From IMG/VR virus record IMGVR_UViG_3300025424_000009: a DNA stretch of 64,000 bases; one strand, 5' to 3'. This document shows, piece after piece, positions 4,641 through 61,239 of this stretch. The stretch comes from a virus. Every line of letters starts with the position of its first letter. Within the stretch, counting starts at the first letter, position 1. Both the position numbers and the translations under genes were made by a program. The notes below the pieces were generated by a model, which did not search any database, was not told where the DNA came from, and saw only the letters and a program-made list of their open reading frames with translations.

Positions 4641-5981
4641 ATGCAAAGAAATTTTAAAGAACTTCTTGAACAAGCTAAGAAAGAACTTACAGAAGATATA
4701 AAATCCGGTAAGATAAAGTTGAATGAAGCTGCTGACCTAGATGAGTTAAAAGAGGTACAAAAGCTAGTAAAAATAGCTAATATCCTTATTGAAAAAGGTG
4801 TAGATAAAGATGGAGATAAATTAGAAGTGGTAGATCCTGAATCTACATATGAAGAACCTTACACATACGACCTAATTAAGATAGAGGGTGAAAAAGTGAC
4901 TGTAACTTCTTATGCCACTATGAAAGGTAATAAAAAAGAAGTAGATGTAATGAAGGTAGGTAATATATCTGATTCAGTAGTTGAATACTTAAAGAGTATT
5001 ATCAAAGGATTTAAAAGAGCCTATAAAGAGGCTGGAATACCTCTTCCTACTAGTAAATCTGAATTACAAGAAGGAGAAGTGGTAATTGCAAAAGATGAGT
5101 CAGACCCTCAAGCCAAACAAGCTGCTAATGATGCAATAAAGAGAGGAGATACAGTAAGGTACGTAAAGCCTGGTACCACACTTCAAGAAAAGAAAGACAA
5201 AGAGGAAGAAGAGCCTATTGAAGATACAGAAGAATCAAAACCTGAAGATGTAGAAAAACCTTCCACATCAACTCCAGATGCTATTTCATCAGAGTTAGAA
5301 GAACACATCAAACAAGCTATTGATTCAGCAGCAGAGTTCATTAAATCTATTGATGACAAGAAGTACGAAACTGCTCTTGGGAAAGTTATCAAAAACTTGA
5401 CCATGGCTCAAGGTGCTTTAGAAGCAGTGAAGGTTCGTGAAAATAAACTAGCAGAAGAAGCTGGAATATTACGTGAAAAATCAATTAAAAAGTATAGCGA
5501 TACATTTATCAAGGGCTTGAAGAAATACATCAAGGATGAGACTCTAATGAACAAAATACTATCATTGTATAAAAAGGCAATAGAAGCTTACCATGATAAG
5601 AAGGTTCCTGCTGAGAAGATGACTGAACAAGTATGGAAGCACTTCACACTTAATGAGGGGATGCAAAAGAAGGTAGGTTATATCCTTACCGAAGCAGCCG
5701 GAGACCAAGATTTAGATAATCTAACTCAGTTTGTAAAAGGTCCTATTGCCAACTCTAAGTTCAAGAGTATTGAAAGTGATGTTGATGTTGTTAAGGATGG
5801 TAAAGACCTAGTAGTTAAATACACAGTAAATGGTCAACCTAAAGATCTTCCTACAGATGCTTTAAAAGAACTTGAAAATAAGTATAAAGTAGACAAGACA
5901 CCTAAAGGGTATATCTTAACACCAGGAGTTATTAAACAAGGACCAAACTTAGGGGATGCTCTAGGTAAGATGAGTAAATAA
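4641..5981 (+). CDS. Hypothetical charged protein, possible internal head/core protein
   Basis: ORF track; start moved to ATG 4641 because the GTG at 4614 lies inside the promoter motif; repeated L-x-E motifs. Confidence 0.7.
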   Translation: MQRNFKELLEQAKKELTEDIKSGKIKLNEAADLDELKEVQKLVKIANILIEKGVDKDGDKLEVVDPESTYEEPYTYDLIKIEGEKVTVTSYATMKGNKKEVDVMKVGNISDSVVEYLKSIIKGFKRAYKEAGIPLPTSKSELQEGEVVIAKDESDPQAKQAANDAIKRGDTVRYVKPGTTLQEKKDKEEEEPIEDTEESKPEDVEKPSTSTPDAISSELEEHIKQAIDSAAEFIKSIDDKKYETALGKVIKNLTMAQGALEAVKVRENKLAEEAGILREKSIKKYSDTFIKGLKKYIKDETLMNKILSLYKKAIEAYHDKKVPAEKMTEQVWKHFTLNEGMQKKVGYILTEAAGDQDLDNLTQFVKGPIANSKFKSIESDVDVVKDGKDLVVKYTVNGQPKDLPTDALKELENKYKVDKTPKGYILTPGVIKQGPNLGDALGKMSK

Positions 5982-6264: not shown

Positions 6265-6285
6265 ATTTAATTAAAAATTAAAGAT

Positions 6286-7032
6286 TTGAAAAATAGAAAT
6301 CCCCTTAACCTCCTTACGGAGAAGATAGATTTACCTTCTAAAGGTAAGTTATACCCCCTAGACAGCCCCCTATCACAAGGGTTTGTTGAAATACTATACC
6401 CTACAGCTAAGGAAGAAGATATCCTTACTAACCCTAACTACATCAAAAATGATACTGCCATTGATAAGTTCATTGAGAGTATTATGGTAACAGACATAGA
6501 TATAAATGATTTGTGCCTATGTGACAAAGATGCTGTGATGGTTGCTGGAAGAATCCTAGGACTAGGATCGGACTATACAATCAGGGAGGGTTTATCTAAT
6601 CCTATCACTTTCAACCTGTCTGAATTGCAAGACAAAGAAGTAGATTGGAGCTTATTTGATAACACTAACGAATTTGAATATAATATTAAAGATGTTGTAA
6701 TCAAGTTCAAAGTACCTACTGGCCACGACATGATTGCCATGAAGAAAGAAGTAGAAGGACTAAAGAAAATAGATCCTAATGCCACTATCGATACTAGGAT
6801 TATCTACAAGTTCACTATAGTAGAGGTAAATGGTAAAAGAGACTTACCTACTATTAATGATTTCTGTAATAGAATACTAATGGTAGATTCAAAGAAACTA
6901 AAAGCTTATGTGGATTTAGTGACACCTGGATATACATGGAAGGGAACTGGTACCTACATTAAGGATAATAAACAAGAGAAAGTGGAGGGTCTCACTATAC
7001 CAGTAACTACTACATTTTTTTACCCTTCCTAA
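6286..7032 (+). CDS. Baseplate hub / tail assembly chaperone (T4 gp26-like)
   Basis: TEKIDLPSKGKLYP..TAKEEDILT pattern; position upstream of tape measure gene; TTG start. Confidence 0.75.
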   Translation: MKNRNPLNLLTEKIDLPSKGKLYPLDSPLSQGFVEILYPTAKEEDILTNPNYIKNDTAIDKFIESIMVTDIDINDLCLCDKDAVMVAGRILGLGSDYTIREGLSNPITFNLSELQDKEVDWSLFDNTNEFEYNIKDVVIKFKVPTGHDMIAMKKEVEGLKKIDPNATIDTRIIYKFTIVEVNGKRDLPTINDFCNRILMVDSKKLKAYVDLVTPGYTWKGTGTYIKDNKQEKVEGLTIPVTTTFFYPS

Positions 7033-37286: not shown

Positions 37287-37296
37287 CCAATCAAGG

Positions 37297-37417
37297 CTCT
37301 ACCGGGAAAACAACGGGATGTCAAGCTTGTGGAGAACTTAGTTCCTACTTATTAAGTAGCAGGAGTTCTGAGAAGCAAGAATTAAATTCATTAATAACAA
37401 TTTAAAATTTAAAGATT
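37297..37417 (+). repeat. Structured leader element, copy 1 (resembles a TnpB/IS605 right-end RNA)
   Basis: Near-identical to 39666-39785, with differences concentrated in two hairpins that keep pairing. Confidence 0.8.
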
Positions 37418-39076
37418 TTGTCAGTCACAATCACATCCGGACAGGAATTAAAAGAGAAGCTGTTAAAGGGAATAAACCTTTCAGCCAACACAGTAACAGC
37501 AACAATGGGTAGCTCTGGAAGACCAGTAGCTATCAGAGATGATCAAGGAGTTATCCGTATTACTAAAGATGGATACAGTGTAGCTAATGCCATCACATCA
37601 TTTGAAGATCCTATTGAGGATATGGCTTTACAGCTACTTAAAGCTTCTGCTAAGAAGACAGTAGATGAAGCTGGAGATGGTACCACTACCACTACCTTGT
37701 TAGTACAGTCTATAGTAAATGAATGTTTAGATATTACTTCCAAGGATGTCAATATAGTAGAAGTACAAAAAGGTATTAATACCTCAGTTGATAACATCAT
37801 AGCTAACCTAAAAGAGCAAGCTATGGAGATTACTACCGAAGAACAAATCTATAGTGTAGCTAAACTATCAGCTAACGGTGATGATGTGATTGCTAAATTG
37901 ATTGCAACATCAATAGATAAAGCTGGGAGAGACGGAAGTATTTCTATTGAAGAATCTAAGTTTGCAGAAGATTCATTAGAAGAGGTAGAAGGTATGGTGA
38001 TAGATAAAGGTCTTTCACATCATCACTTCATTACCGATGAAGCTAAAAACCATTCATTCCTTACAGAGCCTCTTATCCTTCTAGTAGACGAAGTAATGAG
38101 TACCTTAGAATCAGTTACCCCTTTCATGGTGTATGCATCTGAGAAAGAAAAGCCTCTATTAATCATAGCAGAAGGAGTAGAATCAGCAGCTATCTCTGTT
38201 CTAATTGTGAATCACCTTAGAGGTAACTGTAGAGCAGCAGTAGTAAAATCACCTGACTTTGGCCCTAGACGTAAAGCTATCTTGGAAGATATTGCTATTA
38301 TGACTGGAGCTACTGTATTAAGCAGAGAGAAAGGACACGACTTAAAGAAGTTAAAAGATGTAGGGCAGTATCTAGGCTCTTGCCGTTCAGCCACTATTAC
38401 TAAAGATAGCACTACTATCATAGATGGTCGAGGTGATAAGGACCGTATCGAAGAGAGGTTACTAGCTATCAAGGCTCAAATAGATAATGCTTCTTCAGCC
38501 TTTGAGAAAGAGAATCTTCAAGAGAGGTTAGGAAAGATGATTGGAGGAGTAGTTATCATCAATGTAGGTGGTAGGTCTGAGGTAGAAATGAAAGAACGTA
38601 AGGATAGGGTAGAAGATGCTTTATTTGCCACTAAAGCTGCCATTTCAGAGGGTGTAGTGCCAGGTGGGGGATTAGCCTTAATCAATGCAGAACCTGCCCT
38701 AGATAAGCCTCTATTGAATAAAGACCAAGAGATTGGTAGAGAAATAATGAGGAAGGTAATCTTTGCTCCATTTAAAAAGATATTACTGAATGCAGGTATA
38801 GAAAATAGTTATAAAATATATGCTGGAATAAGAGATAACCAAATGGAATTGATACGGTTAGATAAGTCAGAAAAGATGTTATGGCAAGGCTACAACGTTA
38901 AGACAGATACCTACGGAGATGTAAGGGATATGGGTATTCTAGATCCAGTCAAGGTTACCAGAGTAGCTCTTCAGAATGCAGCGAGTACAGCAGGTATCTT
39001 AATGACAGTAGCTGCTGGAGTTAACGAAAACAAATCAGAAAAACATGGTAATAACACTCAAGAGCAGCAATATTAA
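37418..39076 (+). CDS. groEL: Chaperonin GroEL
   Basis: ITKDGYSVA, AGDGTTT, PDFGPRRK, ERKDRVEDAL.AT.AA..EG.V.GGG, GILDP.KV.R.AL.NA.S.A; TTG start; no GGM tail. Confidence 0.96.
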   Translation: MSVTITSGQELKEKLLKGINLSANTVTATMGSSGRPVAIRDDQGVIRITKDGYSVANAITSFEDPIEDMALQLLKASAKKTVDEAGDGTTTTTLLVQSIVNECLDITSKDVNIVEVQKGINTSVDNIIANLKEQAMEITTEEQIYSVAKLSANGDDVIAKLIATSIDKAGRDGSISIEESKFAEDSLEEVEGMVIDKGLSHHHFITDEAKNHSFLTEPLILLVDEVMSTLESVTPFMVYASEKEKPLLIIAEGVESAAISVLIVNHLRGNCRAAVVKSPDFGPRRKAILEDIAIMTGATVLSREKGHDLKKLKDVGQYLGSCRSATITKDSTTIIDGRGDKDRIEERLLAIKAQIDNASSAFEKENLQERLGKMIGGVVIINVGGRSEVEMKERKDRVEDALFATKAAISEGVVPGGGLALINAEPALDKPLLNKDQEIGREIMRKVIFAPFKKILLNAGIENSYKIYAGIRDNQMELIRLDKSEKMLWQGYNVKTDTYGDVRDMGILDPVKVTRVALQNAASTAGILMTVAAGVNENKSEKHGNNTQEQQY

Positions 39077-39170
39077 ACCTAGACAGATAGGTTCTGCATG
39101 GTTTGTAGCAAGTACTATCTTAGAGAGTTATTATAACAATTTATTTAAATCAGAAATAAAAACAAATAAT

Positions 39171-39437
39171 ATGAACATAGAAGATTTAGCTAAAGAGTTA
39201 CAAAGAGTATCTAGAGAGATACATGAAAAAACTTGTAATGGAGAAGCTAATATTGGGTTTATGTCACCTCATGTATATAAGGTTCTATACCCAACAGAGT
39301 ATAAAAATAGATCCTTGGCTTTTAGATTAAAACACAGAAGAAAAAATATTAATTGGTACCCAGTGACTGACCCTATCAAAAGAAAAATATATGATAGCTT
39401 AAACACAGTTGAGTTTTTAACTGTAACACCTTTATAA
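39171..39437 (+). CDS. Hypothetical protein
   Basis: ORF track (39045 start overlaps groEL; ATG 39171 after an A-rich leader preferred). Confidence 0.5.
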   Translation: MNIEDLAKELQRVSREIHEKTCNGEANIGFMSPHVYKVLYPTEYKNRSLAFRLKHRRKNINWYPVTDPIKRKIYDSLNTVEFLTVTPL

Positions 39438-39448
39438 AAATAAACAGT

Positions 39449-39661
39449 ATGAAATATAGAATCGTAGAGACAGAAGGAAAGTTCTTCCCTCAATTCGCAA
39501 ATAGCGAAACAAACAATTGGCTACCTCTTACAGCCAAGGGACTTAACACCAAGGAAGAGGCACAAGTAGTTGCAGATAAACATGCAAACAGTTTTAAAAG
39601 TGTCAACGAAGTAGTACACGATTATATACCTAATTCACAAAAACAAATTTTATTAGGTTAA
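39449..39661 (+). CDS. Hypothetical protein
   Basis: ORF track. Confidence 0.6.
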   Translation: MKYRIVETEGKFFPQFANSETNNWLPLTAKGLNTKEEAQVVADKHANSFKSVNEVVHDYIPNSQKQILLG

Positions 39662-39665
39662 TAAA

Positions 39666-39785
39666 CTCTACCCTAAAATCTAGGGGATGTGAAGCTTGTG
39701 GAGAACTTAGTTCCTTACCGAAGGTAAGCAGGAGTTCAGTGAAGCAAGAATTAAACAATTAAATAACAATTTAAAATTTAAAGAT
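39666..39785 (+). repeat. Structured leader element, copy 2
   Basis: Aligns almost without gaps to 37297-37417. Confidence 0.8.
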
Positions 39786-40091
39786 TTGGAACAGCAACAA
39801 TTAAAAATTGATTTAAGTAAAACAGCAGGGTGTATATGCCCTGCTTGTAGTAACAATACCTTTAAAGAGGTACTACTTATAAGAAAGGTAAGTAAGTTCT
39901 TGATAGGGTCTAATACGGATATGCACATGCCTATTCCGGTATTCTCCTGTACTAAGTGTGATACTATTCATACAGGATCTCTCACACCTCAAGTAAGAGA
40001 TTTATTAAATGTAAGTGATGATACAGTAGATGTAGAAGAGGAAGAAACCCAACAGAGTGCTAAAATAATTTCAATGTTTCCTAAAAAGTAG
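39786..40091 (+). CDS. Zn-ribbon protein
   Basis: CPAC ... CTKC; TTG start after repeat copy 2. Confidence 0.7.
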   Translation: MEQQQLKIDLSKTAGCICPACSNNTFKEVLLIRKVSKFLIGSNTDMHMPIPVFSCTKCDTIHTGSLTPQVRDLLNVSDDTVDVEEEETQQSAKIISMFPKK

Positions 40092-61166: not shown

Positions 61167-61239
61167 GAATTCTTAGTTTAACTGAATAGAACGTCCATCT
61201 ACGGAGTGGTTAGTGAAGGTTTGAATCCTTCAGAGTTCA
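61167..61239 (+). tRNA. tRNA-Arg(ACG), somewhat degenerate
   Basis: GAATTCT/AGAGTTC acceptor, GTTT/GAAC D stem, CTACGGA anticodon loop, GAAGG-TTTGAAT-CCTTC T arm; no encoded CCA. Confidence 0.7.

Follow-up and report, generated by a model that had tools for sequence, protein, structure and literature searches.

The stretch of viral DNA analysed here comes from IMG/VR virus record IMGVR_UViG_3300025424_000009; it is 64,000 nucleotides (nt) long (hereafter "the window") and corresponds to G000:C1:19132-83131, minus strand, within a 147-kb IMG/VR phage record. Counts and negative results given for the record cover all 147 kb, and those given for the window cover its 64,000 nt. At the center of this report are two copies of a repeat of about 120 nt, each standing directly in front of a gene. 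Copy 1 (37297-37417, plus strand) lies between an 87-amino-acid (aa) open reading frame (ORF) and groEL (37418-39076, plus strand; Cpn60, Pfam PF00118, E 6e-54), and copy 2 (39666-39785, plus strand) lies between a 70-aa ORF and a gene known from the ORF list (39786-40091, plus strand), which encodes a Zn-ribbon protein of 101 aa with two CxxC pairs and no Pfam family. The two ORFs upstream of the copies also lack a Pfam family. Comparison with other viral contigs indicates that the repeats are very probably orphan right ends of TnpB elements, each consisting of a guide-RNA (omegaRNA) scaffold and an AU-rich tail, that have been retained as translation leaders.

The copies were recovered by a repeat search as two blocks, 50 nt at 86% identity and 61 nt at 89% identity, both spaced 2369 nt apart. 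A core 24-mer and a 26-mer in the tail each occur exactly twice in the window (none expected in shuffles), and no third full copy was found in the record by BLAST, by pattern searches or with the covariance model R1 described below. An ungapped alignment of the copies contains 26 differences in 124 columns, which are strongly clustered compared with a uniform spread (p about 6e-5). Eleven fall in an apical hairpin, where four pairs have changed on both sides and are still paired and the loop accounts for the rest, and six fall in the first hairpin (hairpin 1), where one pair is swapped (G-C to C-G) and two pairs are gained in copy 2; the remainder comprise two in a 3-nt bulge, one in the linker, five in a small AT loop and one extra T. 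The equal spacing of the blocks and the maintained pairing of the changed stems agree with the sequence-only reading, an earlier model-made note on this DNA that had described a duplicated structured RNA of about 120 nt with compensatory changes. Homology between the copies ends at a TTG codon, and to the left of their shared 5' boundary the flanks differ, with 10 nt (copy 1) and 4 nt (copy 2) to the upstream stop codon. The 120 nt contain no protein-coding gene, and their sole reading frame is a relic of a tnpB end. Tandem duplication was considered as the source of the second copy and rejected, since the right junctions of the two copies fall on the start codons of two different genes.

The predicted folds of both copies agree with the family model and consist of hairpin 1, a stem-loop containing a kink-turn (k-turn) and an apical hairpin, and an unpaired AU-rich tail of about 37 nt, all on the plus strand. 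Hairpin 1 has 3 bp in copy 1 (37302-37316), where it corresponds by homology to the family's covarying first hairpin, and 5 bp in copy 2 (39671-39685), where it is supported by the fold, the copy alignment and R1. The k-turn stem-loop of copy 1 (37326-37379) was placed by alignment to the R1 consensus and by folding; it runs from a non-canonical (NC) stem through the k-turn and a canonical (C) stem to an internal loop and a 6-bp apical hairpin at 37345-37359. Its counterpart in copy 2 (39695-39748, apical hairpin at 39714-39728) was delimited by an Rfam alignment, the fold and R1. The tails, which form the last bases of the element, extend over 37380-37417 and 39749-39785. Of the stems listed by the sequence-only reading, the apical hairpin is kept, but the proposed TCCT/AGGA pairing overlaps it and both cannot form.

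Within the stem-loop, an asymmetric internal loop places GGA on the 5' strand opposite three bulged bases and GAA on the 3' strand, and on this prediction it is a textbook k-turn. The key positions are the same in both copies (-1b:-1n C:G, G:A, A:G, 3b:3n A:G and 4b:4n G:U) and, as read from the model alignment, are those of the crystallized k-turn of RAGATH-18 (PDB 7EAG; Table 1 of PMC8191799). RAGATH-18 (Rfam RF03064) is the core of the right-end RNA (reRNA) that serves IS607 TnpB nucleases as guide (Ren et al. 2024, PMC11061315). The fold energies of the copies are ordinary (z -0.37 and -0.76), and thus the case for structure rests on comparison rather than on energy.

The position of the repeats relative to the downstream genes is exact. 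The TTG at the end of each copy, which the sequence-only reading had taken as the start codon, is the earliest canonical start in the ORF that follows, and neither ORF has another; for groEL this start is confirmed by alignment with a relative that has an ATG at the same codon. Two relatives, L128 and L129, whose GroEL is 77% identical, have the same gene order without the element at both sites. Their groEL begins with an ATG one base past the stop codon of a 65-aa ORF, and in the L128 homologue of the Zn-ribbon gene (63% identical) the initial ATG shares bases with the upstream gene's stop codon. With and without the element, the encoded N-termini are otherwise equal (GroEL starts with MSVTITSGQE in both). 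The unit in the phage lies exactly between the upstream stop codon and the TG of the downstream start, as the proposed 5' leader of both genes would, and its last T turns that start into TTG. Nothing of the unit is present at the empty sites up to the TG, and the insertion therefore comprises the whole unit with its tail. The alternative that the tail is an ordinary phage leader beside the insertion was rejected for the two full copies, given that the empty sites lack the tail and that the elements of two full-length relatives described below (L115 and L205) carry related tails.

Other features of these sites are as follows. In the relatives, the 65-aa ORF (L128:2799-2996, compared with window 37287-37296) lies between the homologue of the 87-aa gene and groEL; it is absent from the phage, where the element sits. 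L128 has nothing that corresponds to an ORF after groEL (39045-39437). No common target-adjacent motif emerged from the left flanks of the two empty sites, and a scan for sigma-70 promoters and terminators near the copies returned nothing above chance.

To identify sequences of the same kind, viral contigs were scanned with the unvarying strands of the k-turn stem, CTTGTGGAG and GAAGCAAGAA, set apart by a gap of 20-50 nt. Matches to this two-part motif came from more than 119 viral contigs; of 121 matches, 69 (57%) are overlapped by a tnpB ORF on the same strand or have one that ends at most about 100 nt upstream. From 46 non-redundant tnpB-adjacent scaffolds in other viral contigs, with the phage's own copies excluded, we built the covariance model R1. 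Both hairpin 1 and the C stem covary in this alignment; in hairpin 1, five pairs have changed on both sides in 4-17 sequences. R1 has only two matches in the record, and these are the two copies: 39663-39755 for copy 2 (56.1 bits, E 3.6e-12) and 37294-37386 for copy 1 (46.3 bits, E 1.3e-9). As the training set was picked via a 19-nt motif that is also present in the copies, the independent part of these matches consists of hairpin 1, the linker, the C stem and the spacing. In addition, 16 nt of the apical hairpin of copy 2 are identical to scaffolds of IMGVR_UViG_3300037502_002993.

The relic reading frame points in the same direction. The copies translate as STGKTTGCQACGE and STLKSRGCEACGE, compared with PTVKTTGSQACGD at the end of the TnpB of L115. 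According to the sequence-only reading, tnpB ends often read ACGE...KQE, and this is what CTTGTGGAG...GAAGCAAGAA encodes. Its central proposal, an orphan TnpB right end or omegaRNA scaffold, is upheld by R1, built without the copies, and by the location of the motif at tnpB 3' ends. The competing view that the repeat is a duplicated intergenic k-turn hairpin with a chance or generic likeness to TnpB scaffolds could appeal to the recurrence of k-turns in unrelated RNAs and to the Rfam results, in which copy 2 scores 25.8 bits against RAGATH-18 and does not reach the gathering score of 44.9, and copy 1 has no match up to E 10. However, a generic hairpin would not account for the association of more than half of the motif matches with tnpB 3' ends, for R1 scores of 46-56 bits at just two places in 147 kb, or for a similarity to L115 that reaches beyond the k-turn to hairpin 1, the linker, the tail and the relic frame. 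By these three lines of evidence the generic reading is largely refuted, and we give it almost no weight.

The closest full-length relative of the element is L115 (IMGVR_UViG_3300017447_000001). In it, a 390-aa tnpB ends in the same sequence, and a TTG at the element end opens the next ORF (213 aa). A second full-length tnpB relative, L205, comes from metagenomes, and a related tail ends its element as well. A direct duplication of 9 nt flanks the L115 element (reverse strand, 1085-1093 and 2326-2334) and takes in the TG of the downstream start; its left copy keeps the original ATG, which opens an 8-codon mini-ORF. Y1-type transposition is not known to make target duplications.

The orphan state has parallels elsewhere. 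In other viral contigs, about 30 R1-positive scaffolds are preceded by 1.2 kb or more without a TnpB fragment, and a few retain just the last ~70 tnpB codons; as judged by the model, orphan scaffolds are common in other viral contigs. IMGVR_UViG_3300037502_002993, a 220-kb jumbo phage (L012, L061 and L071), carries at least five scaffolds of this class, some tnpB-adjacent and some orphan, as well as a HEARO (IscB) RNA on the same contig (L061:5353-5562). At the loci L013 and L124, an orphan scaffold (L013 ~4852-4943, minus strand) follows a good sigma-70-like promoter (TTGACA, 17 nt, TATAAA-like) and is immediately adjacent to a tRNA gene in a tRNA cluster. From its sequence, this scaffold looks like a separately transcribed stand-alone guide, with the 5' end of the tRNA gene as the guide.

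A search of the record with a TnpB family hidden Markov model identified two TnpBs, ~72 kb upstream and ~40 kb downstream of the copies, and no further TnpB or fragment down to E = 1. Both genes are intact (399 aa, G000:C1:118475-119674; 384 aa, G000:C1:1944-3098), both proteins have intact D-E-D triads, and no transposase lies near either gene; neither a Resolvase (PF00239) nor a Y1 transposase (PF01797) was found in the record. The statement of the sequence-only reading that the window has no tnpB or transposase is correct, with the two intact tnpB genes located elsewhere in the record. As these TnpBs are the only ones, and the ORFs next to the copies on their upstream side have no Pfam family, the copies are orphans. 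The TnpBs of the record are 33-34% identical to the TnpB of L115, with which TnpB1 groups in a quick tree. Applied with filters off to the 3' regions of both tnpB genes, R1 gave at best 8.9 bits and did not recognize them. These regions have the same general layout (a hairpin with a GGGCA loop, a stem-loop and a hairpin) and lack a canonical k-turn.

The presence of intact nucleases raises the question of whether the scaffolds still work as stand-alone omegaRNAs. If so, a TnpB made by the same phage would take them up in trans after their excision from the operon transcript, and the opening 16-20 nt of groEL or of the Zn-ribbon gene would be the guide. In co-infecting relatives this complex would cleave alleles that lack the element (stop codon, ATG and the same coding start), whereupon repair would copy the element in, and the complex could also restrain translation of the two genes. 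This would be consistent with the intactness of all scaffold core positions in both copies, the compensatory stem changes and clustered differences, and the identical 5' boundary of the copies, which is near the beginning of the scaffold in relatives. Two nucleases with complete triads are available in the record, one of them grouping with the L115 TnpB, and there is precedent in stand-alone omegaRNAs, reported to be active in trans with compatible effectors (Altae-Tran et al. 2021, as summarized in PMC10691335), and in palindrome-associated transposable elements (PATEs). On the other hand, R1 misses the 3' ends of both visible tnpB genes, whose products are distant from the L115 TnpB, and the scaffolds lack a promoter or terminator of their own. 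Against the sole empty alleles available, the guides have 2-4 mismatches in 16 positions, and the tail-only sites considered next show that such elements decay in this phage. We consider activity in trans unlikely. If the scaffolds were still loaded with TnpB, the phage would own a multi-guide system directed against the start regions of its rivals' genes.

A motif search found the last 19-30 nt of the unit together with the TTG at four further genes of the record, each of which has an ORF without another start. One site (window 6266-6288, plus strand) comprises ~19 nt of tail and the TTG start of a 248-aa gene (start 6286); in relatives at 83% identity this gene has an ATG start and the motif is missing. 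Another (G000:C1:96645-96670, minus strand) precedes a 395-aa gene (G000:C1:95457-96644); here 19 of 21 relatives start with ATG or GTG, the tail is present in none of the 21, and the phage has ~25 extra bases between a GATATTTAT-type motif and the TTG. The remaining sites precede a 142-aa gene (G000:C1:7570-7593, start C1:7591) and a 78-aa gene (G000:C1:10425-10455, start C1:10453). For two of the four genes, relatives were not found or were too distant to be usable. The four tail-only sites are probably footprints of decayed TnpB elements, and a comparison of all these loci suggests a decay series that leads from the full element (L115) through scaffold plus tail (the two copies) to the tail alone.

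The GATATTTAT(A/T) motif occurs 3-25 nt upstream of the starts of 395-aa homologues in ~18 of 21 related contigs (L215-L235) and at 25 plus-strand sites in the record, and from this distribution it is probably a phage promoter. One occurrence, at about window 35114, lies upstream of the gene block that contains the copies.

The footprints also bear on the suggestion of the sequence-only reading that the element acts as a thermosensor or translational switch. In this scenario the element would be a domesticated cis-regulatory leader, responding to temperature or to a k-turn-binding protein, that controls translation of the chaperonin and of the Zn-ribbon gene independently of TnpB. The structure does lie directly 5' of both start codons, it is conserved between the copies, and a well-formed k-turn is a common protein-binding module. 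However, the centroid structures of both copies leave the tail and the TTG single-stranded, so that the predicted folds do not sequester the start codon, and ordinary fold energies likewise give no support to a switch. Tail and TTG work at four genes without any scaffold, and the two genes behind the scaffolds have no evident shared function. Moreover, the nearest relatives express both genes without the element, which points to a recent insertion and not to a conserved regulator. Thus, the switch is not borne out, and we regard a dedicated regulatory role as distinctly improbable.

We propose that the repeats are the right ends of TnpB elements (OMEGA; IS200/IS605-IS607 superfamily) that have lost tnpB and kept the scaffold and the AU-rich tail. 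Each element inserted exactly between the upstream stop codon and the TG of the downstream ATG, its last T restoring the start codon as TTG. The host group generally does without Shine-Dalgarno pairing, and the unstructured AU-rich tail of ~37 nt may act as a translation initiation region that needs no Shine-Dalgarno sequence. The scaffold itself is most likely co-transcribed within the operon. Since the downstream gene would depend on the element end, that end could not be lost, and decay from full element to scaffold plus tail to tail alone would always spare the part that the downstream gene needs. The best-supported role is passive but real: tail and last T would serve as initiation region and start codon of both genes.

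Several observations weigh against this proposal or limit it. The copies have neither a left end nor a tnpB fragment beyond the last ~30 codons, and full-length ancestors at both sites are thus inferred. Both copies begin at the same base, which random independent deletions would not produce; this shared start points to a common orphan ancestor, to a mini-element that moved as a unit, or to selection for a complete scaffold. Differences that spare every core position fit continued selection on the RNA as well as divergence of the parent elements. Finally, the ordinary leader of the relatives of the gene starting at 6286 is also AT-rich and somewhat similar, so that part of the tail-only likeness there could reflect convergence.

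A bolder extension, which we offer tentatively and hold to be less probable than its opposite, is that an AT-tailed subfamily of TnpB elements carries a portable translation-start cassette. The AU-rich leader, together with a T that turns TG into TTG, would permit insertion into the stop/start junctions of tightly packed phage genes without silencing the gene downstream, and the cassette would outlast the nuclease gene. In at least six phage genes, including groEL and two likely structural genes, past insertions would have rewritten the leader and start codon in this way, and the two complete scaffolds would be possible spare guides for a phage TnpB.

If the retained-right-end interpretation holds, the locus provides a dated, site-by-site example of RNA-guided nuclease elements colonizing and then decaying in a lytic phage genome, with the empty sites of relatives as controls. 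It also illustrates how a fragment of a selfish element may become fixed in a genome when its end serves as leader and start codon of an essential-looking gene. When such phages are annotated, a TTG start behind an intergenic k-turn hairpin would indicate an old TnpB insertion rather than a dedicated regulator.

The phage is of the Bacteroidota type; the nearest relatives of its GroEL, found by blastn of the locus, are GroELs of Flavobacterium, Cellulophaga and Bacteroides phages. The same blastn search of the locus returned groEL homologues only, and blastn of the 120-nt element against GenBank phages returned no match. A tail-specific pattern had no matches in viral contigs, and a scan of genome contigs identified two Lysinibacillus loci only. 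An Rfam scan of the whole window detected a single tRNA gene (61167-61239, 49.5 bits) and nothing else.

Among known systems, RAGATH-18 is an obvious point of comparison. Its k-turn key pairs are identical to those of the phage scaffolds, and both strands of the NC stem agree in sequence. However, the middle part of the RAGATH-18 model has 39 nt, compared with 24 nt in the phage copy, and the published scaffold is 187 nt long and wholly intergenic (PMC11061315). RAGATH-18 is also associated with IS607, whereas the phage record is without a serine recombinase. Assignment of the element to the RAGATH-18 family was rejected, as copy 2 is below threshold and copy 1 unmatched. A search of the phage's whole record with RF03064 returned only noise and missed the 25.8-bit site. 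Among 17 related loci, L079 alone reaches the Rfam threshold, and RAGATH-18 is therefore one branch within a broader class of TnpB scaffolds that bear a k-turn.

Effector-less stand-alone omegaRNAs are a kind already known. Those described by Altae-Tran et al. 2021, as summarized in PMC10691335, occur without effector or transposase and are reported to act in trans with compatible effectors, and protein-less, PATE-like derivatives of IS200/IS605 with omegaRNAs were noted by Meers et al. 2023 (10.1101/2023.03.14.532601). Like these, the phage copies are scaffolds free of nuclease and transposase in a genome that also carries intact tnpB genes, and each intact scaffold abuts a unique flank that would be its guide. 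Unlike these, the copies lack an identifiable left end or paired transposon ends (no left-end model was used), they reside in a phage, their end is fused to a start codon, and scaffold similarity gives no support for compatibility with the TnpBs of the phage. In the literature searched, we found no description of an exact insertion at a stop/start junction in which the element end supplies leader and start codon, or of a trail of tail-only footprints at other genes.

TldRs, the nuclease-dead, TnpB-derived RNA-guided repressors found in prophages (Wiegand et al., 10.1101/2023.11.30.569447), likewise involve TnpB-type guide RNAs on phage DNA that are used outside transposition. However, TldR guides adjoin their protein and target host promoters, whereas the phage copies have no adjacent protein, the visible TnpBs of the phage have intact catalytic triads, and the would-be guide is simply the flank.

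A further counterpart is found among tnpB-only (IS1341-type) elements in phage genomes, in the full-length element of L115. It differs in retaining a 390-aa tnpB that overlaps the scaffold, where the window copies are missing ~1.1 kb including the gene, and in having a 9-nt target copy at its left junction. In common with the window copies it has hairpin 1, the linker, the k-turn stem-loop and the AU-rich tail, and there too the following gene takes its TTG start from the element end.

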